A stretch of DNA of 64,000 nt from a virus: the IMG/VR virus record IMGVR_UViG_3300046504_000138, positions 6,638 through 70,637 of that record; one strand, written 5' to 3'. Shown piece by piece: positions 39,328 to 55,117 of the stretch. A program made the translations under genes and the position numbers. The notes beneath the pieces are model-generated. The model was not told the DNA's origin and did not search any database. It saw only the letters and a list, made by a program, of their open reading frames with translations. Each line of letters begins with the position of its first letter. Positions within the stretch are counted from its first letter, which is position 1.

Positions 39328-40467
39328 ATGAAGATAAAAATTGTATTGGGGTTAGGCTTCGGGGATGAAGGTAAAGGCGCAACAGTCAATGCTTTATGTA
39401 CTGATCCTAAAAATACTGTAGTTGTTAGGCATAATTCGGGTCATCAAGTTGGACACACTGTTGTTCATAATAATATCCGGCATCCATTTTCGAACTTTGG
39501 TTCAGGTACACTCAAAGGTGTTCCTACATACTTTTCAGAATACTGTACTGTTAATCCATTGGCGGTGAAAAAAGAAGGCGATGTTCTTCGTGCACAAGGA
39601 ATTTATCCCGTTGTATATTATAATGCCAATGCTATGGTGACTACACCATATGATATTTATAGGAATACAAATGATGGCAATAATGTTTTACATGGCACTG
39701 TTGGTGTTGGTTTTGGCGCAACAATTCAACGTAATGAGGACATGTATCACCTGTACATCAGAGACCTTCAATATCCGAAAATTAGAGACATGAAATTGAT
39801 TGCTATTCAGCAATACGTTTGCCGTGAAACCAATGATTATGCCATTGTTGGAAACAAACATTATGATCAAATCATTGAAAAATTCAAATTGTCGTGTGAT
39901 GAACTTGTTCAGAAGTACTCAATTATTGATAATTTCGGTTACATTCGTGTACATGATCCTGATTTGATTTTTGAAGGTGGTCAGGGTATTATGCTTGACA
40001 TGGATTATGGTTTCTATCCAAATGTAACACGAAGCAATACCACAAGCAAGAATGCAATGGAAATTATTGAGAAGAATGGTCTTGGCAGTCATATGATCGA
40101 AACATATTATGTCACACGTGCATATCAAACCAGGCACGGCAATGGACCGATGACTAACGATGATTTGGATATTTCATATATCAAACCTAATCCTCTTGAA
40201 ACAAATGTTGATACAGGCGCACAAGGCATTTTCAGAAAATCTGTATTGGACATGGATTTACTAAAATATGCATTGAATTGTGATAAGTATCACAATAAAA
40301 GTTTGGGAAAATTTTTGGTAGTTACCTGCATGGATCAAGTTGGGGAAAGAGTACCTGTTACTGATTTCGAAGGTAAACTTTTGAGTCTCATGCCAAAAGA
40401 AATCGGCAATTGGCTGAGTATATTTAATGTTTATACATCAAATTCTGATCAAGGAATTGTTTTTTAA
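39328..40467 (+). CDS. Adenylosuccinate-synthetase-like protein (divergent PurA family)
   Basis: GDEGKG, GHTV, FEGGQG..LD...G.YP.VT.S and TRHGNGP motifs. Confidence 0.85.
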   Translation: MKIKIVLGLGFGDEGKGATVNALCTDPKNTVVVRHNSGHQVGHTVVHNNIRHPFSNFGSGTLKGVPTYFSEYCTVNPLAVKKEGDVLRAQGIYPVVYYNANAMVTTPYDIYRNTNDGNNVLHGTVGVGFGATIQRNEDMYHLYIRDLQYPKIRDMKLIAIQQYVCRETNDYAIVGNKHYDQIIEKFKLSCDELVQKYSIIDNFGYIRVHDPDLIFEGGQGIMLDMDYGFYPNVTRSNTTSKNAMEIIEKNGLGSHMIETYYVTRAYQTRHGNGPMTNDDLDISYIKPNPLETNVDTGAQGIFRKSVLDMDLLKYALNCDKYHNKSLGKFLVVTCMDQVGERVPVTDFEGKLLSLMPKEIGNWLSIFNVYTSNSDQGIVF

Positions 40468-49305: not shown

Positions 49306-50736
49306 ATGCCAACAGTCTATCTTGCATTATTAATTCCGATCATAGTAACCGGAATTTTCTATTTTTTCAGAAAATCGCAATTTGTTTGGTGGGAATTCTT
49401 CATTCCTATTGGTGTAGTACTTATATCTGTTGTAATCGCCAAGGCACTTATTGAGCACTCAGCAGTTAAATTCACCGAATATTGGGGTTCAACTGTTACT
49501 GCAATCTATGAAGAAGAACCATATAATTATTGGCATCATGAAACCTGTTCATATACAACTACCGATAGCAAAGGTAATTCAACCACTCATTATTACGACT
49601 GTTCCCATCAAGTTGATGAAGGACCTTCATGGTATGCCAAAACCAATATTGATGAAACGTTTAATATTACTGAACAACAGCATGATGAACTTCTGAGGCA
49701 ATTCGGAACACGCAGGACTATTGTTGATTCTCATGAAAACTATTCTCCACGTGACCATGCAAGTAGCAGTCATGGTACTAAATTCGAAGGTAAAATAGTC
49801 GGTAAGACTTCATATGTTTATCAGACAGTATGGGGTGGCACTGACGATACACGCAAAGCATATACAAGTGAACATACTTATATTAATAAGGTCAAGGCAA
49901 GTGATCTGACTATCTTTAATATCAAAATGGTCAAAGAAACTCAGGCAGATAGTCTTGGCTTATTTAGATATCCACCATATGAGGGCGGTGGGTTATTCGG
50001 AATGACAAAAGGTCTTGAATATCCAACCATCTTAGGCGGTAATATCAATAAAGAAACTCAGGAAAAATTCAAGAGACTCAATGGTAAATTTGGTCCAAGT
50101 AATCAATTAAGATTATGGATATTAATATATGAAAATAAACCATTGTCAACTGTAATATTACAAGAAAATTATTGGGTTAGAGGCAACATGAATGAATTAA
50201 TAGTATGCATTGGTAAGAAAGGCAATGAAATTCAATGGTCTCATGCGTTTTCATGGGCATTAAGTGATGTATTGACTGCAGATGTAAAGAACCAAGTAAT
50301 GAATCTCTATACGTATAAGGATAGCACTATTAAGAAAAATATGCCACGAGTAGTTCCGGTAAGTAAAGAAATACAGCATGCGGTAAATAAACTTAGAGTA
50401 AGTAAAGATAAATTACCACCTGCATTGCCTTTACCTAAACAAATCACCGTAGATACCATAATTAAGGTTAAATCGGCATATCCCATGTTAAATGAACAGA
50501 CCTTGAATGACTATTACGACTATCTCAATGTAAATCTTTCGAAGTTCCAAAGAAGATCATTTAAAGAATTTGATTATCTTAGTGTAGAACCTTCAACAGG
50601 TGCAGTGATTTTTATATATATACTTGCACTGATAATTGCAATAGGTGTGAATTTTTGGGTAGTTAATAACGAAATTTATGATGAATCAGCACCTGAGAAT
50701 AAAAATAAATGGAGAAATCCATATAATAGATATTAA
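49306..50736 (+). CDS. Membrane protein with large extracytoplasmic domain
   Basis: Two N-terminal TMs, C..C hairpin, C-terminal TM. Confidence 0.7.
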   Translation: MPTVYLALLIPIIVTGIFYFFRKSQFVWWEFFIPIGVVLISVVIAKALIEHSAVKFTEYWGSTVTAIYEEEPYNYWHHETCSYTTTDSKGNSTTHYYDCSHQVDEGPSWYAKTNIDETFNITEQQHDELLRQFGTRRTIVDSHENYSPRDHASSSHGTKFEGKIVGKTSYVYQTVWGGTDDTRKAYTSEHTYINKVKASDLTIFNIKMVKETQADSLGLFRYPPYEGGGLFGMTKGLEYPTILGGNINKETQEKFKRLNGKFGPSNQLRLWILIYENKPLSTVILQENYWVRGNMNELIVCIGKKGNEIQWSHAFSWALSDVLTADVKNQVMNLYTYKDSTIKKNMPRVVPVSKEIQHAVNKLRVSKDKLPPALPLPKQITVDTIIKVKSAYPMLNEQTLNDYYDYLNVNLSKFQRRSFKEFDYLSVEPSTGAVIFIYILALIIAIGVNFWVVNNEIYDESAPENKNKWRNPYNRY

Positions 50737-50737
50737 A

Positions 50738-50814
50738 ATGAAACACTTTTTTAAAAGAATCTTTAATTGTGCTCTTCACGATTTTAAACCTGTGAGAGAG
50801 TGGATGCTTTGGGG
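50738..50814 (+). pseudogene. 5' half of a phage gene interrupted by the IS607-like element
   Basis: MKHF...VREWMLW-G rejoins in frame with TFGKSGKDPLKY at 53724. Confidence 0.8.
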
Positions 50815-50932
50815 TATAAGAACAGTTCAAGAAAATCTACAAAAAATTAGGAAATATTAAAAAATATTTATATCTTTGTCAAACTTTTTACTAATTTTAT
50901 ACTATTTATATATGAAAAGAAACTTATTAAAA

Positions 50933-51118
50933 ATGATAAAAGAGACAAATTACAAGGTTGTAAGGGTTACAAAGACCGAATTCGAGTTGGATAATGGTGA
51001 CATATATCCACATAACTTCGAACTCGAAGAAGACATCACCGTTGAAGAATTTCAAAAATTACTGGATTCTTCAAAAGAACTAATCGTAGATTTACTGAGG
51101 AAAATTGATGAACAATAA
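50933..51118 (+). CDS. Small hypothetical protein inside the IS left end
   Basis: ORF after TATTTATA (50903), overlapping the tnpA start. Confidence 0.6.
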   Translation: MIKETNYKVVRVTKTEFELDNGDIYPHNFELEEDITVEEFQKLLDSSKELIVDLLRKIDEQ

Positions 51119-51842
51119 TTTACTAAATATAAAAGAAGCATCGGAGTACCTCAATACCTCTAAGGAAACATTAAGGAATTGGGATAAGAGTGGTAAGTTA
51201 CCGTCAATAAAAACTGTTGGTGGTCATAGGAGATACCAAAAGGAAAAACTTGATGAATTCATTGGAATTATAAAGTCAGATGAAACATCGGATGTTGTTG
51301 CCACCTATGCCAGAGTAAGTTCACATGAACAGAAAACCAAAGGTGATTTGGATAGACAATCTCAGAGAATTTCTGAATACTGTGCAAAGAAGAAATTGAA
51401 AGTTGAATATATAATAAAAGATGTTGGGTCAGGATTATCCGATACAAGGTCGGGATTTGTTAAGTTAGGGAATCTGGTTATTGATAAGAAAATCACACAG
51501 GTCATCATCGAGAACAAAGACAGATTAACAAGGTTTCAATATAACTTTGTGGAGAAGATGTTCGGGAGTTACGGAGTTAAAGTAATATGTATCGACAAAC
51601 CAGACGATGAAGGGGATAAAGAGTTTATTAATGACCTTATGATGATAATTGCGTCATTCTCTGGAAGATTATATGGAGCACGAAGTGCTAAAAACAGAAG
51701 AGAAAAGAAATTAAAAGAAAGTAGTATAAATTTTCCATTACCCGATAACGCAAAGCCAGAAGATTATGAATGTCCAATACCTAAGTTTACTGATGACGAT
51801 TTAAGGACTTATGATATGAAAATAATAATGAAAAATAAATAA
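51105..51842 (+). CDS. tnpA: IS607-type serine recombinase (MerR-like HTH + resolvase)
   Basis: TLRNWD..G......T.GGHRRY, YARVSS..QK..DL.RQ, DVGSG, DRLTRF and FSGRLYG.RS motifs. Confidence 0.92.
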   Translation: MMNNNLLNIKEASEYLNTSKETLRNWDKSGKLPSIKTVGGHRRYQKEKLDEFIGIIKSDETSDVVATYARVSSHEQKTKGDLDRQSQRISEYCAKKKLKVEYIIKDVGSGLSDTRSGFVKLGNLVIDKKITQVIIENKDRLTRFQYNFVEKMFGSYGVKVICIDKPDDEGDKEFINDLMMIIASFSGRLYGARSAKNRREKKLKESSINFPLPDNAKPEDYECPIPKFTDDDLRTYDMKIIMKNK

Positions 51843-51844
51843 TT

Positions 51845-52207
51845 ATGGAAAGAACAATTAAATTTAGAGCATGGGACGAAGGTAATAAAATCATGCACAA
51901 CAACTTTCAATTCATTCGTTCAGGTGAAGAAGGTAATGATTGGATAGTATTTACATCCGATAAACAAACTCTTAAAGACAAACAACATCCGTTGGAAAAT
52001 CCTTATTTTCAGCAACAATTGAAAATAATGGAATGGACAGGAATAGAAAATATTTTTGAAGGAGATATTGTCTCGTTAGGTGAAACTGACGGAGAAGGTG
52101 TTGTGAAATATAATGAAGATAGATTTTATGTTGATTACGGAACTATACATACAAGAGTGAGTAAAAATCATAAAGTATTGGGAAACATTTACGAAAAAAC
52201 TGAATAA
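51845..52207 (+). CDS. YopX-like protein (IS cargo)
   Basis: IKFRAWD...M.WTG...IFEGDIV...VLGNIYE. Confidence 0.8.
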   Translation: MERTIKFRAWDEGNKIMHNNFQFIRSGEEGNDWIVFTSDKQTLKDKQHPLENPYFQQQLKIMEWTGIENIFEGDIVSLGETDGEGVVKYNEDRFYVDYGTIHTRVSKNHKVLGNIYEKTE

Positions 52208-52208
52208 T

Positions 52209-52412
52209 ATGAGTGGAGAAGTAGAATTTGGAAAATGTGATATTTGTAAAGAGGACAAACCTCTTGAAAGGACTTACTATCATTATGATATTAAATGTGA
52301 ATGTCATTCACCTCGTCATTTTGAATTGGTTATACATTGTAAAGATTGCGTTCCAAAAGAACCATCGGAAACTAAAATTATACTAAAAACATCAAATCTT
52401 TCAAAAATATAA
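52209..52412 (+). CDS. Small Zn-binding protein (IS cargo)
   Basis: CDIC...CECHS..H....HC.DC. Confidence 0.7.
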   Translation: MSGEVEFGKCDICKEDKPLERTYYHYDIKCECHSPRHFELVIHCKDCVPKEPSETKIILKTSNLSKI

Positions 52413-52414
52413 TC

Positions 52415-52570
52415 ATGAGAACAATAGAAATGAGTTGCTTAAGTTCTAAATATAATGAACTTAGAAAAGGATTAAAAATAACAAATGAATCGCATAGTAA
52501 TCGTGTCATATTGTGGTTTCATTTTATCTGGTTCGCAATAAGATTTTGTACATATAAAACACCTAATTAA
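52415..52570 (+). CDS. Small hypothetical protein (51 aa, IS cargo, not in ORF track)
   Basis: Fills the gap exactly between 52412 and tnpB. Confidence 0.5.
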   Translation: MRTIEMSCLSSKYNELRKGLKITNESHSNRVILWFHFIWFAIRFCTYKTPN

Positions 52571-52572
52571 TA

Positions 52573-53709
52573 ATGAAACTAATCAGGTCAACCAAATGTA
52601 GTTTGAAATTCGCAACAGCGAAGAAGCAAAATGATTTATTAATCATCTTGAGTGAATACTCAAAGGTGGTTAATATCTTCATTGACTATTTCTGGCTGAA
52701 TTCTGAGAAAGCAACAAAAGGAGAACTCCTTAAACCAGTTGTTGACATACCCGAAACTTGGTTATCGGCACGACTACGAAAGGTAGCAGCAAGAGAAGCC
52801 ATCGACATGATTAATGCTTCAAAGATTCGTTGGAAAGAAAAAGCAGCGAAGCCAGTTCATAAAGGTAATAGGATGTATGTTAGTTGTACTATTGCTGACT
52901 TAGTATCAACCAAAAACAATGGTTATAAAACCGAAGACAGCAGACTTTTTGATGCTTGGTTACACATTGCCTCAGTAGGTAATAAAATGATAATGGATTT
53001 ACCGATTAAATATCATAAACACTTCAACAAATATAACAACATCGGTAAGAGATTGAACTCGTATATTATCACGAAGAATTATGTTCAGTTTAGTTTTGAA
53101 ATAATAACACAACCTAAGAAAGAAGACACGAAGTGTATTGGTATAGATACTGGTATAAACGCATTGGCGAGTCTTAACAACGGAAATCAGTATGGTAAAG
53201 ACATTAAAGGTTGCATCGAGAGAGTGAAAAGATGTAAGCAGAAGTCCAAAGGCTATTATGTTGCTAAGAGAGCATTAAAACAACGCATAGATGAAACAGC
53301 AAAGGAAATATTAGTGAAAGAGAATCCTGATTTGATAGTTGTAGAACGATTAAAGAATATGGGATATAAAACAAAAGCCAAATGCTTGTTGGCTAAAAGT
53401 ATCAGGCGTTCTATCGGAACTTGGAATTGGAAGTACTGGTTGAAAAGGTTAGAAGCACAATGCGAGATTAACCGTGTTAGTTTTCGTAGTGTAGCACCTT
53501 ATTACACCAGCACAACCTGTCCAGTATGTGGTCATTCCGATAGGGGAAATCGATTAGGAGAAATGTTCTTGTGTCTCAGTTGTGGTCACGGGGATAATGC
53601 AGATATAAATGCGGGTAAGAACATTTTGAATCGATTTCTCACGGGACTATACGGTGCTCGTTACAAACAGGAAAATCAAGAGAATTTGGTTGTTACCAAT
53701 TTTTTGTAG
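52573..53709 (+). CDS. tnpB: TnpB RNA-guided nuclease
   Basis: RuvC triad GIDTG / VVERL / ADINA intact; CPVC...CLSC zinc ribbon. Confidence 0.92.
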   Translation: MKLIRSTKCSLKFATAKKQNDLLIILSEYSKVVNIFIDYFWLNSEKATKGELLKPVVDIPETWLSARLRKVAAREAIDMINASKIRWKEKAAKPVHKGNRMYVSCTIADLVSTKNNGYKTEDSRLFDAWLHIASVGNKMIMDLPIKYHKHFNKYNNIGKRLNSYIITKNYVQFSFEIITQPKKEDTKCIGIDTGINALASLNNGNQYGKDIKGCIERVKRCKQKSKGYYVAKRALKQRIDETAKEILVKENPDLIVVERLKNMGYKTKAKCLLAKSIRRSIGTWNWKYWLKRLEAQCEINRVSFRSVAPYYTSTTCPVCGHSDRGNRLGEMFLCLSCGHGDNADINAGKNILNRFLTGLYGARYKQENQENLVVTNFL

Positions 53710-53715
53710 ATTTTT

Positions 53716-53907
53716 ATGAACGGTACATTTGGTAAGAGTGGTAAAGACCCTCTAAAATATGTGATATTAAAGAATATGTCTGATGATCATATTAGAGCAA
53801 TTCTTGATACTCAAAAACAAATTACTAATTTCTACCGCATGGAATTTGAAAGAGAATTAATGCGTAGGGCAAGAAAACCTGAACTTTCACTTAAAGAAAC
53901 AACTTGA
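53716..53907 (+). CDS. 3' half of the interrupted gene, given an in-frame ATG by the IS right end
   Basis: ATG AAC GG|T ACA TTT GGT; GTFGKSGKDPLKY...SDDHIRAILDTQ. Confidence 0.65.
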   Translation: MNGTFGKSGKDPLKYVILKNMSDDHIRAILDTQKQITNFYRMEFERELMRRARKPELSLKETT

Positions 53908-54050
53908 AAACGATTGATGAATTAGAATGGGTTCTTGGTGTTCTTGCATTAGGAATATGTTTAGGATTTTTTATGTATTTATATAATCATGAAAAAGAAA
54001 GAAAAAAAGAAATACGTAAAACCGGAAGTGACAAGGATAGTATTGGATAA
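53904..54050 (+). CDS. Possible small single-TM protein (TTG start, not in ORF track)
   Basis: TTGA overlap with the upstream stop; one hydrophobic helix. Confidence 0.4.
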   Translation: MKTIDELEWVLGVLALGICLGFFMYLYNHEKERKKEIRKTGSDKDSIG

Positions 54051-54165
54051 CACATTCAGTTTGTGCATGATGTCGCATCCTGAACATCCACCGCACCCGC
54101 CACATCCACCGCACCCGCCACATAAAGGTGCTTTTGATAGTCCATTTGATAAACCTTTTAATTGA
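53989..54165 (+). CDS. RiPP-precursor-like peptide with YxKP leader and His-Pro-Pro repeats (58 aa, not in ORF track)
   Basis: MKKKEKKKYVKPEVTRIVLDNTFSLCMMSHPEHPPHPPHPPHPPHKGAFDSPFDKPFN. Confidence 0.7.
   Translation: MKKKEKKKYVKPEVTRIVLDNTFSLCMMSHPEHPPHPPHPPHPPHKGAFDSPFDKPFN
54085..54120 (+). repeat. 18-bp tandem repeat x2
   Basis: CATCCACCGCACCCGCCA twice, encoding HPPHPP. Confidence 0.9.
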
Positions 54166-54171
54166 AATATT

Positions 54172-54540
54172 ATGAATTACAATGAATTTTTAAGAAAAAT
54201 TATTGATGAAGGTATTGAAGCAGCAAAAGCCGATTATACTGAGGAATCTGATAAACAACGTTTAGAAGGTTCAATTGCAGGATTTGAAGCCTGTCGTGAT
54301 AAAACTCCTGAAGAACTTGTTGAAGTGTGGAAAAAAGCATCATCAGATGTTAATAATGCCTTTGGTGATAACGAAAAAAAATATTGGTGGTTTCGTTGTT
54401 TTCAACTTGAAGTCGAATGGGTTTGTAATGTAGTAAGTGCAATGTTATTAAATGAAGGTCGTAAACCTTTATTGGCGTGGTTGCCTACTGCTAATGGTGG
54501 AATGAAAGCATCATCAATACTTGGAGTTAATAAAGAATAA
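54172..54540 (+). CDS. Hypothetical protein
   Basis: ORF in operon. Confidence 0.7.
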   Translation: MNYNEFLRKIIDEGIEAAKADYTEESDKQRLEGSIAGFEACRDKTPEELVEVWKKASSDVNNAFGDNEKKYWWFRCFQLEVEWVCNVVSAMLLNEGRKPLLAWLPTANGGMKASSILGVNKE

Positions 54541-54547
54541 TATTATT

Positions 54548-55117
54548 ATGGAAGAAGAAAAAATTTTAGAACTTAGGATGTACTTCTTTGTACCCTACAA
54601 CATAAGTCCAATACAACAAGCAATCCAGGCAGGTCATTCGGCATTGGAATATGCAGATAAATATGGTGGCGAGGAACAATTTATTCATTTTGTCAGAGAA
54701 CATAAAACTTGGGTGATTCTTAATGGTGGTACTACCAATTCAAGAAGAGACTTTAGTGGTGAAGTTATGGGAACTCTTGATCAGATTGGTGATTTATTAC
54801 TTGCAAATGATATACAATTTGCTTATTTTCAAGAACCTGATCTAAATGATGCACTTACAGCACTTTGTTTTATCTGTGATGAACGAGTATTTAATAAAGA
54901 AGATTATCCTGACTTTTTGGATTATATTTTTGATGTTAAAATGTATCCTGATGCCAGAAAAGAAACACCTGCAGAAAATTATGTAATGCTCAAGATGCAA
55001 CCAATAGAAAAGTTACAGGAAATGTTTCCGGAATACTATAAAGAATGGGTAAGGTTTATTGGTGGAGTGAAAAATGTTTTCCTACGTGAAGTATTAAAAG
55101 GTAAAAAATTAGCATAA
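54548..55117 (+). CDS. Peptidyl-tRNA hydrolase type 2-like protein
   Basis: MY...ISP.Q.AIQAGH, KT.VILNGG and F.EPDL...LTA motifs. Confidence 0.65.
   Translation: MEEEKILELRMYFFVPYNISPIQQAIQAGHSALEYADKYGGEEQFIHFVREHKTWVILNGGTTNSRRDFSGEVMGTLDQIGDLLLANDIQFAYFQEPDLNDALTALCFICDERVFNKEDYPDFLDYIFDVKMYPDARKETPAENYVMLKMQPIEKLQEMFPEYYKEWVRFIGGVKNVFLREVLKGKKLA

Follow-up and report, generated by a model that had tools for sequence, protein, structure and literature searches.

A phage-borne IS607-family element with genes between tnpA and tnpB and a predicted RNA-guided TnpB

Organisation of the element

The window, the whole 64,000-nt stretch of viral DNA analysed here, carries at 50815-53723 a single 2,909-bp insertion in a small gene of a large phage, the only copy of the element in the 70.6-kb record. 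The insertion belongs to the IS607 family and forms one tightly packed string of plus-strand genes encoding five or six ORFs (Table 1). A first-pass annotation had placed a small ORF, tnpA, three cargo ORFs and tnpB within it, and all were found as given. The small host gene is probably non-essential, and the large phage is probably a jumbo phage.

Table 1. Features of the insertion and its flanks (window coordinates)
Feature	Position	Strand	Basis or remark
Interrupted ORF, 5' part	50738..50814	+	colinear with L056 and L060 N-termini
Predicted TAM and recombination-core flank, GGGG	50811-50814		last four bases of ORF 5' part; left-flank logo
Left end (LE)	50815..50911	+	conserved across copies from first base T (22/22)
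Promoter-like TTGTCA-16-TATACT	50876-50903	+	within LE; 10/12 match
orf68, conserved small protein of the element family	50912..51118	+	directly upstream of tnpA, overlaps tnpA start
tnpA, IS607-type serine recombinase, 245 aa	51105..51842	+	Resolvase E 4.5e-19, HTH_17 E 9.4e-13, MerR E 9.5e-11
TnpA copy-specific tail, ~aa 210-245	51733-51842	+	adjoins cargo junction
Cargo gene 1, YopX-family, 120 aa	51845..52207	+	PF09643 E 1.5e-10; phrog_98
Cargo gene 2, 67-aa ORF, six Cys	52209..52412	+	always paired with yopX
51-aa ORF	52415..52570	+	open frame only; coding status doubtful
tnpB, 378 aa	52573..53709	+	PF07282 E 2.1e-15; TnpB/Cas12f structures, best E 2.7e-10
Predicted omega-RNA scaffold	53527..53723	+	covarying core 53527-53665 in tnpB 3' coding region, variable 3' hairpin, terminal AACGG
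Interrupted ORF, 3' part	53716..53907 (phage sequence from 53724)	+	homology to uninterrupted relatives
Predicted guide-templating flank = empty-site target TACATTTGGTAAGAGT	53724..53739	+	homology among copies ends at AACGG, then T

Both junctions read as the first-pass annotation described them. On the left, flank sequence ending in TTTGGGG runs to 50814 and the element opens with TATAAG; on the right, the element terminates in GAACGG at 53723 and the flank begins with TACATTTGG at 53724. The GGT common to both junctions leaves the cut point ambiguous by up to 3 nt. There is no target-site duplication, and the empty site is scarless, the GG(T) core alone being common to both ends. The exact empty site proposed earlier also held: in-silico deletion of the insertion yields 261 nt that read through 86 codons, unbroken by stops, to a terminal stop codon. 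Syntenic genes free of the insertion, in the two related phage contigs L056 and L060, are colinear with the joined frame and align to it over the entire 86 aa, including the N-terminal 26. By tblastn, identity to these closest uninterrupted orthologues is only 59-68% across the 59 C-terminal residues. Across the junction-equivalent position, W-G/K-T-Y/R-G-K is read in 9/9 further uninterrupted relatives of the split ORF (L002-L010). At that position L056 and L060 carry TGGGGA^ACA and TGGGGG^ACA (the caret marks the junction); because they differ there, they are not the naive allele, and the predicted guide would mismatch them. The phage's own element-free allele was not seen in four sequencing runs, nor was an excised-circle junction (RE joined to LE) reported from them, both weak negatives since only contigs were covered. 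Run X1 has independent contigs that span each of the two junctions with 0 differences. An in-frame ATG at 53716, supplied by the right end of the element, could permit synthesis of the conserved C-terminal domain.

Only 97 nt separate the first base of the LE from the first ORF. The promoter-like pattern in this interval is weak evidence in such AT-rich DNA, with 31 sites observed against 17.6 expected. A 32-nt inverted repeat, 84% complementary, pairs 50822-50853, beginning 7 nt inside the LE, with 53693-53724 at the right end. The same register (LE +8 versus RE terminus) recurs in 12/20 copies, and the repeat exceeds all 200 shuffles in 6/20; its arms might represent the subterminal motifs that TnpA binds in IS607 elements.

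Directly upstream of tnpA in 22 of 25 tnpA-bearing loci lies orf68, 68 aa long from a conserved ATG or 80 aa from an upstream TTG. Homologues fall into 254 protein clusters at E <= 0.001; none of the 120 listed carries a Pfam domain or any label beyond 'hypothetical', and the atlas clusters are 96-100% viral. The AF2 model (helix, three strands, helix; pLDDT 86.5) is not predicted to be an HTH protein and has no fold match in the PDB at E <= 0.001.

TnpA consists of a MerR-like HTH (aa 6-53) followed by a catalytic domain (aa 66-204), and matches the solved structures of ISC1926 TnpA (E 9e-27) and IS1535 TnpA (E 2.9e-18), alignments that take in the YARVSS motif. Its unusual tail of ~40 aa, remarked on earlier, is real. 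Alignment to solved IS607-family catalytic domains ends at about residues 197-206, and TnpA elsewhere in the family measures 198-220 aa except in the broken L043 copy. Homology to the closest tnpA (L025, 91.5% DNA identity) ends at 51732.

The tnpA-tnpB interval here is 730 nt long and holds three ORFs. The first-pass annotation had called them YopX-like, Zn-binding and a 51-aa ORF, and they fared differently. The YopX assignment was borne out by its Pfam domain; a copy at 96% identity lies in another element at another site (L014/L015), and one at 92% in L071 lies outside any IS607. The 67-aa Cys-rich ORF is possibly zinc-binding, and all six of its cysteines are retained in L015 (83% identity) and L071 (57%); Pfam and PHROG searches gave no family. 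This yopX-zn pair also occurs in a homing-endonuclease island adjoining thyA, without IS607. Whether the 51-aa ORF is a gene is doubtful: its open frame is its sole support, it has no Pfam or PHROG match, and the stretch 52364-52563 is unmatched in the six copies compared.

A phage-borne element family with changing cargo

Related tnpB genes were found in 45 viral loci, and nearly all contigs that carry this IS607 lineage are from phages. Its copies occupy numerous dispersed sites, in either orientation and often within small genes. Among 22 unique left junctions the flank has G at -1 and -2 in all, G at -3 in 21 and G or A at -4 in 20. Of 36 unique right junctions, 34 have AACGG as the end of the element and the other 2 end in CGA; the next base is T. 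Position -3 therefore reads G in 21/22 left flanks versus C in 36/36 right ends, and GG^T is common to both sets. Excision in silico restored a frame that stays open for at least 25 codons to either side in 12/21 copies, versus 29% of 420 mismatched-flank controls.

Between tnpA and tnpB, related loci hold anything from nothing to ~2.8 kb. The gap is at least 249 nt in 19 of 22 measurable loci, and the two genes adjoin in only three (L035, L037 and L042). Separation of tnpA and tnpB by cargo in an IS607-type element, as first proposed for the window copy, is supported, but the accompanying remark that the two genes are normally adjacent understated the case, as a filled gap is the usual state of the phage-borne family. 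The gaps elsewhere contain an SF2 helicase, an M24 peptidase, a nested second IS607 or many small ORFs of no assigned family; most cargo has no recognisable function. The LE, orf68, tnpA, tnpB and RE are retained between copies while the cargo differs. A helicase with a 147-aa protein occupies the slot at three different sites (L012, L019 and L048), a related helicase with other partners is found at a fourth (L022), and yopX-zn is present at two. The same cargo inside the element at different insertion sites indicates that cargo moves with the element.

How does the slot change its contents? Mosaicism is evident in the window copy: TnpA shares 95% identity (aa) with that of L025 but TnpB only 84%, and TnpB shares 93% with that of L015 but TnpA only 62%. 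Variants in runs X1 and X2 change sequence exactly at 51704/52573, 52363/52573 and 51396/51840, and an X1 variant has 287 other letters in place of 52364-52572.

Predicted RNA, proposed mechanism and alternatives

Candidate RuvC residues of TnpB (D192, E258 and D344, assigned by motif position) and a zinc finger (C316/C319/C334/C337) are all retained in 29/29 aligned family members, one empty row excluded. The predicted omega-RNA core comprises 45 pairs, with 96.3% of cells paired versus 39-47% with slid partners; 19 pairs are changed on both sides versus 4-8 in the slid controls, and 0/500 shuffles score as high. The covariation falls within coding sequence, and the slid-partner control argues against a coding artefact but leaves the RNA itself a prediction. 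A 3' hairpin is predicted in most of 33 distinct right ends.

We infer that 53724-53739 templates the guide, its 16-nt length being assumed from other TnpBs; the first T of the right flank could be part of the recombination core. In run X4, one contig departs from the window sequence after 53724. The guide and G-rich TAM foreseen in the first-pass annotation are consistent with the family, in which right junctions read AACGG then T and left flanks read R-G-G-G, the latter in agreement with the TGGG TAM defined experimentally for another IS607 TnpB (PMC10690162).

Two other types of RNA-bearing IS607 element were considered. Searching 50500-54200 against Rfam gave no family at E <= 1, group I introns included, and with 97 nt between the start of the LE and orf68 an IStron was rejected. 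The solved 384-aa 'Transposase' 8iaz, which we take to be the TnpB of a RAGATH-18-guided system, matches this TnpB at E 1e-5 only, and RAGATH-18 was presumably among the Rfam families searched. By that search, at E <= 1, no RNA of the RAGATH-18 type that guides the IS607 TnpBs of PMC11061315 lies downstream of this tnpB.

What could this arrangement accomplish? It is likely, in our view, that the insertion is an autonomous phage-borne IS607 transposon with swappable cargo, in which TnpA moves the unit, TnpB-omega-RNA cuts element-free alleles, and repair copies the element together with its cargo. The unit would sit at an R-GGG^T site in the order LE promoter, orf68, tnpA, cargo slot, tnpB and an omega-RNA scaffold ending in AACGG. 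Through serine recombination at the GG(T) core that both junctions share, TnpA would excise and insert the complete unit with its cargo, and no target duplication would arise. The omega-RNA would extend into the right flank and so acquire a guide for that flank, and the nuclease would cut genomes in which the left-flank GGG directly abuts the right flank, that is, the element-free allele; the occupied locus would be spared because its right end reads CGG. Repair of the break from an occupied copy, among replicating genomes or in co-infection with an element-free relative, would then retain or copy element and cargo. Recombinational repair is plausible, given that the phage encodes homologues of an SbcCD/gp46-47-like nuclease, a ligase and a Dda-like helicase. 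The slot would be reshuffled when family members recombine in their conserved tnpA and tnpB genes. Counted against this explanation were the single copy in the record, the closest orthologues not being the naive allele, the terminal inverted repeat, the doubtful 51-aa ORF, the position of the covariation in coding sequence and, weakly, the lack of an element-free allele or excised circle among the contigs of the four runs. Homing between co-infecting phages, the gene-drive part of the reading, is argued by analogy alone, from the tested IS607 TnpB with TAM TGGG and right end UCGG.

An ordinary IS607 transposon with passive passengers would accommodate all the structural evidence equally well. 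Its TnpB would restore the element after its own excision within one lineage (restorative homing) or be idle, without spread between phages, and its neutral cargo would have arrived by illegitimate recombination. That most cargo lacks a recognisable function fits such an element, the presence of yopX-zn in the island by thyA is generic hitch-hiker behaviour, and a 2026 review describes spread to co-infecting phages as only theoretical (PMC13565253). We nevertheless regard it as unlikely: the slot is filled in most copies, with genes packed end to end in one orientation, and both the TnpB catalytic residues and the RNA structure are clearly constrained across copies 63-93% identical. In run X1, moreover, summed contig depth, a figure that is not a copy number, reaches 221.7 at the 3' end of tnpB versus 9.3 in the flanks.

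Alternatively, TnpB-omega-RNA might serve mainly as a phage weapon that cuts competing relatives lacking the insertion, with or without conversion, as some intron homing endonucleases do. By construction the predicted guide target is present only in element-free genomes, and homing endonucleases are described as killing competitor phages (PMC13565253), but the scattered sites in both orientations, often in small genes, speak of selfish transposition and not of a fixed weapon locus, which makes this improbable. It is scarcely credible that the arrangement is an assembly chimera, or two unrelated neighbouring insertions (a tnpA-only IS and a solo tnpB) that enclose native phage genes: solo tnpB copies and tnpA-less or truncated derivatives do exist (L011, L013, L021, L034 and L053) and L017 has the same element with a different left flank, but only removal of the whole 2,909 bp, and no partial removal, restores the orthologous ORF, relatives with that ORF uninterrupted lack yopX-zn at that place, repeats of at least 12 nt listed for the element include no second AACGG-type right end after tnpA and no second LE before tnpB, the yopX-zn-tnpB block recurs within an LE...RE unit at another site (L015), and run X1 contigs span both junctions.

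Beyond the autonomous transposon itself, a broader role is possible, though we think it less likely than not: this phage-restricted IS607 would be a cargo vehicle, with a dedicated swappable slot, a new element-specific protein (orf68) and a TnpB/omega-RNA by which the entire cassette invades genomes lacking the element when phages co-infect, spreading helicase modules, a methionine-aminopeptidase-like enzyme, YopX-Zn pairs and dozens of small proteins, which may include anti-defence or competition factors, among very large phages. OMEGA nucleases are considered to preserve their transposons by cleaving sites that lack them. The phage-borne family offers a natural test case, with dozens of sharp-ended copies, a predictable TAM and guide for each, and varied payloads in one slot. 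Should the drive work, large phages would have a way of trading accessory genes whether or not those genes are useful, and the cargo list would be a catalogue of candidates for roles in phage competition or counter-defence. Should it not, there is still a well-documented relative of IS607 that carries passenger genes and encodes an additional conserved protein. The compact TnpB, G-rich TAM and defined RNA may also interest tool builders.

Comparison with known systems

The closest parallel is the IS607-family CboIStron of Clostridium botulinum (Zedaveinyte et al., PMC10690162), with which the phage element shares a serine-recombinase TnpA, a GG core, a G-rich target and a scarless donor joint. 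As described there, its TnpA requires GG and prefers TGGG, its TnpB recognises the TAM TGGG, and its scaffold ends in UCGG, the third G discriminating against self-cleavage. The left flank R-GGG and right end AACGG seen here parallel TGGG and UCGG, the C at -3 being what protects the occupied site in CboIStron. Unlike CboIStron, the phage element has no group I intron by the Rfam search above, and it differs further in encoding the conserved orf68, in having a slot for cargo after tnpA and before tnpB, and in residing on phage genomes.

By published description, canonical IS607 elements encode two proteins and have no terminal inverted repeats (Chen et al. 2018, PMC6188088; review PMC13565253). 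In common with IS607, IS1535 and ISC1926, the phage TnpA places its HTH before the catalytic domain, its best matches being their solved catalytic domains; in common with canonical IS607, the element ends in GG, makes no target-site duplication and has tnpB downstream of tnpA (PMC6188088, PMC13565253). It departs from them in its five or six ORFs, in orf68 upstream, in the distance between tnpA and tnpB and in the imperfect inverted repeat at its ends. Serine-recombinase TnpB elements are reported to carry cargo rarely, in a branch named 'Ser-3' (Altae-Tran et al. 2023, PMC10691335). Compared by description only, Ser-3 likewise has helicase cargo and cargo of no known family, while a phage setting, insertion-site analysis, cargo turnover and an orf68-like protein are absent from that description.

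As for copying into other replicons, an IS605 TnpB gene drive has been shown experimentally in plasmids, where the transposon is copied into element-free copies of a multicopy replicon (PMC11870625; PMC13565253); for phages such copying appears in the 2026 review as theoretical only (PMC13565253). That proven drive uses a Y1 transposase, resides on a plasmid and carries no cargo, whereas the phage IS607 drive is only inferred. The free-standing homing endonuclease genes of T-even phages (seg, mob) are selfish and pass from phage to phage in co-infections, taking adjacent genes with them (PMC13565253); they recognise targets through protein and have no discrete ends, whereas the phage IS607 element has sharp ends, a transposase and, as we propose, an RNA guide.

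The insertion and the gene it splits

The boundaries of the 2,909-bp insertion coincide exactly with the junctions given in the first-pass annotation, and its ORFs are tightly packed, overlapping or separated by gaps of 1-2 nt (Table). Scripted excision of the block yields an 86-codon ORF with zero internal stops. Could this rejoined frame be due to chance? The left part of the split gene ends in WMLWG and the right part starts with TFGKSGK, and the two meet at a motif, W-G/K-T-Y/R-G-K, that is found at the junction-equivalent position in 9/9 more distant uninterrupted relatives (L002-L010). In two related phage contigs, L056 and L060, the uninterrupted gene (97 aa and 85 aa) sits between homologues of the 476-aa gene upstream and the 198-aa gene downstream of the insertion. 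Their products align with the reconstructed product end to end, with 59-68% identity across the C-terminal 59 residues (tblastn), and the sites equivalent to the junction read TGGGGA/ACA and TGGGGG/ACA (slash at the junction). An assembly artefact is ruled out, since contigs from an independent run span both junctions with 0 differences. Because of the motif, the synteny and these contigs, the rejoined frame is not due to chance, and the reconstructable empty site proposed earlier, colinear with the L056 and L060 genes, is borne out.

In a comparison of four of 24 listed sequencing runs (X1, X2, X4 and X5), made on contigs only at a minimum likeness of 90, where rare variants are lost so that absence is not implied, no element-free allele of the source phage was found (no contig joins 50814 to 53724), nor was the join of right end (RE) to left end (LE) expected of an excised circle. 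From an ATG that the RE supplies, translation of the split gene's conserved C-terminal domain may still be possible; ends of this type also occur in L011, L023 and L052.

Table. Features of the window and of compared loci.
Locus	Positions	Strand	Feature
Window	39328-40467		Adenylosuccinate-synthetase homologue (PF00709, E 6e-41); best PHROG phrog_1211, PurZ-type enzyme of phages replacing A with 2-aminoadenine
Window	50815-53723	+	Element: orf68, tnpA (MerR-type HTH and Resolvase domain), YopX-family gene, 67-aa six-Cys ORF, 51-aa ORF, tnpB
Window	50822-50853		Left arm of inverted repeat
Window	53693-53724		Right arm of inverted repeat
Window	50812-51732		91.5% identity to L025
Window	51733-51818		tnpA tail, unmatched in six copies compared
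Window	51819-52363		90.8% identity to L015
Window	52364-52563		51-aa ORF, unmatched in six copies compared
Window	52564-53666		86.6% identity to L015
Window	53527-53665		Predicted RNA structure, within tnpB coding region
Window	53716-53907		RE ...ATGAACGG contributing ATG (53716) in frame with 3' part of split gene
Window	53989-54165		58-aa ORF just 3' of split gene, with His-Pro repeat (HPEHPPHPPHPPHPPHK)
L015	3341-5118		Nested IS607: tnpA 38% and tnpB 24% identical to the window's; full Pfam support for both
L017	1-76		Left flank, unrelated to L016/L018 from GGG onward
L034	5565-7148		LE, ~250 nt on an internal RE-like ...GAACGG, then tnpB with its own RE, without tnpA
L071	3092-6566		Full thymidylate synthase gene, NUMOD3 ORF, yopX, Cys-rich ORF, 78-aa thyA 3' fragment, SegE/GIY-YIG-like ORF

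What kind of phage carries the element? The source, an IMG/VR virus record of which the window takes up bases 6638-70637, is 70.6 kb long, with a completeness estimate of 22% and a single copy of the element, and the phage has a G+C content of 32%. The window encodes tail-fibre-like, SbcCD/gp46-47-like, DNA ligase and Dda-like helicase homologues, and the viral contigs bearing relatives of the genes neighbouring the element reach 349 kb. Reading TGA or TAG as a sense codon barely lengthened the longest ORFs, and code 11 was retained. Given this gene content, the size of the relatives' contigs and the standard code, the window is a piece of a large, probably jumbo, phage genome. No megablast match to 50000-54600 was obtained among GenBank phages, and the phage thus has no named close relative there. 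If the phage, with its PurZ-type homologue, has Z-DNA, the base-pairing of any guide RNA would be affected.

Cargo movement and mosaic make-up

Searching viral contigs with the TnpB protein, we detected 45 loci (63-93% identity), 25 of which have a tnpA; the largest contig among them measures 422 kb. The distance from tnpA stop to tnpB start, measurable in 22 loci, is nil or negative in three (L035, L037 and L042), 249-803 nt in 14 and 2.6-2.9 kb in five. The ORFs filling the gap all share the orientation of tnpA and tnpB, and their identity varies between copies. Some have an SF2 helicase (ResIII/DEAD, E 1.9e-16), partnered by a 147-aa protein or by others; elsewhere the gap holds a 265-aa M24 peptidase (E 9.7e-44), paired secreted-looking proteins (129 and 132 aa), or single ORFs of 61-215 aa without known identity. 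In L015 an entire second IS607, only distantly related, occupies the slot, and after it come yopX, the Cys-rich ORF and another Cys-rich ORF. Among ten cargo proteins PADLOC returned helicase-motif matches only (best E 2.4e-5, sub-diagnostic) and no defence-system call. A motif-based reading of the 215-aa cargo of L023 as GIY-YIG-like was dropped, Pfam being empty at E <= 0.5.

Does the cargo move with the element? It does: the helicase and its 147-aa partner lie within LE-to-RE units at three separate insertion sites (L012, L019 and L048), with a related helicase and other partners at a fourth (L022). The pair formed by yopX and the 67-aa Cys-rich ORF (yopX-zn) also occurs next to the tnpB of an element inserted elsewhere (L014/L015), at 96% and 83% amino acid identity, although the tnpA there is only 62% identical to the window's. 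The placement of the cargo inside the element, on which the earlier interpretation depended, is therefore upheld at these sites.

The window copy is a mosaic: aligned to other copies, it consists of blocks of differing affinity (Table). Contig variants in X1 and X2 switch exactly from 51704 to 52573, from 52363 to 52573 and from 51396 to 51840. The TnpA tail is most readily explained as a side effect of a junction with cargo. A further copy of yopX-zn, at 92% and 57% identity, is found in L071 without a nearby IS607. A full thyA lies on one side of it and a duplicated 3' piece of thyA on the other, and NUMOD3- and SegE-like ORFs flank the pair; the SegE/GIY-YIG-like match scores 22.6 bits, below the 25-bit cut-off, and the region looks like a homing-endonuclease island. 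Because the pair also occurs there, yopX and its partner are indeed phage genes that travel on mobile DNA.

A scan of prokaryotes (one genome per species, 185,579 species) gave only five matches from 53 candidate stretches, all on metagenome-assembled contigs, one of which is evidently a phage contig already in the viral set. One of them, L083, is filed under Candidatus Vampirococcus lugosii and matches TnpB residues 1-183 at 78%, at the end of its contig; it could represent a phage fragment caught up in binning, or point to the host. No host is assigned on the strength of these five matches. Across 50300-54300, summed contig depth in X1, which is not copy number, is 7.5-9.3 over the phage flanks versus 30-220 over the element, with its peak at the tnpB 3'/RNA region; this suggests that the X1 community holds many related elements.

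Ends, predicted RNA and proteins of the family

Unique right junctions end in AACGG (34/36) or AACGA (2/36) and are followed by T in 36/36, where similarity among copies ends. At unique left junctions the flanking positions -1, -2 and -3 are G in 22/22, 22/22 and 21/22, preceded by G or A in 20/22, and the first base of the element is T in 22/22. GG/T, common to both junctions, is the IS607 GG core plus one further conserved base. Position -3, in contrast, is C in the right ends (36/36) and G in the left flank. In an experimentally tested IS607-family element from C. botulinum, TnpA prefers TGGG, TnpB needs a TGGG TAM, and the RNA scaffold ends in UCGG, its third position preventing self-cutting (PMC10690162). 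Because the junction pattern of the family parallels these features, the TAM (TGGG or GGGG) and guide (flank from 53724) predicted in the first-pass annotation seem well founded by analogy.

The terminal inverted repeat holds the same register in 12/20 copies examined and exceeds all 200 shuffles in 6/20. In-silico excision restores a frame that runs open for 25 codons or more on each side in 12/21 copies versus 29% of 420 mismatched-flank controls, with L034 (internal RE-like end) and L037 (25 nt of left flank only) uncertain; frame-restoring insertions occur in either orientation. We dropped a reading of L034 as an LE-tnpB-RE unit without tnpA, given its internal RE-like end; it may consist of a miniature derivative beside a lone tnpB, or have arisen by nesting. 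From the element through 1.5 kb of its right flank, L017 is 99.8% identical to L016/L018, and its mismatched left flank possibly reflects a second copy that assembly collapsed, a rearrangement next to the element, or recombination.

RNAalifold, applied to an alignment of the terminal 230 nt from 36 distinct copies, yields a predicted structure of 45 pairs. On the alignment 96.3% of its cells are paired, versus 39-47% with partners slid 1-3 columns; 19 pairs have changes on both sides, versus 4-8 in the slid controls, and 0/500 shuffles reach any of five structure measures. Downstream, just before AACGG, most of 33 distinct ends are predicted to form a hairpin whose sequence varies. Rfam holds no family matching this region at E <= 1, and we therefore reject readings as an IStron (group I intron) and, as far as Rfam covers it, as RAGATH-18. 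TnpB residues D192, E258 and D344 and four Cys are conserved in 29/29 aligned proteins.

Directly upstream of tnpA in 22/25 tnpA-bearing loci lies orf68, which itself has no Pfam or PHROG relative. At E <= 0.001, 254 clusters are related to it, and the 120 listed yield no Pfam domain or informative name; its Atlas clusters are 96-100% viral. A confident structure model (pLDDT 86.5), in which a helix and three strands precede a long helix, matches no PDB fold at E <= 0.001. Roles like Xis or the Arc repressor of IS605 were considered, with support for neither. The orf68 product is a family-specific protein.

Proposed mechanism and known systems

The cargo-bearing insertion noted at first pass is confirmed by its junctions, ORF string and restored frame, and its interpretation as an IS607/TnpB element with cargo is supported and widens to a family, with 45 tnpB loci. 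How might an element with this anatomy, an exact insertion, family-wide ends, a TAM-like flank, a structured RNA and conserved catalytic residues maintain itself? By comparison with tested relatives, TnpA would move the whole unit via a circle at the GG core, and the omega-RNA would extend into the right flank. TnpB would then cleave R-GGG plus flank in element-free genomes, and recombinational repair would restore element and cargo by copying. Such a drive by TnpB and omega-RNA is plausible by analogy, and its least supported step is the extension from self-preservation in a single lineage to transfer among co-infecting phages.

Our literature search returned no paper on cargo-bearing IS607 in phage genomes (figures and supplements of PMC10691335, beyond its reach, might show the family) and none on TnpB-driven homing in phages. 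Homing into co-infected phages is given as theoretical in a 2026 review (PMC13565253), and where phage TnpBs come up in work on landfill megaphages, it is only next to CRISPR arrays (PMC12607003). The nearest published statement, in PMC10691335, is a sentence on some serine-recombinase-associated TnpBs ('Ser-3') that bear an extra HTH protein and cargo, for instance an RNA helicase, a protein like WhiA, or unknowns. From the textbook description of IS607 the window element differs in two respects, namely an inverted repeat of 32 nt (84%) between its ends and a coding capacity of more than two proteins.
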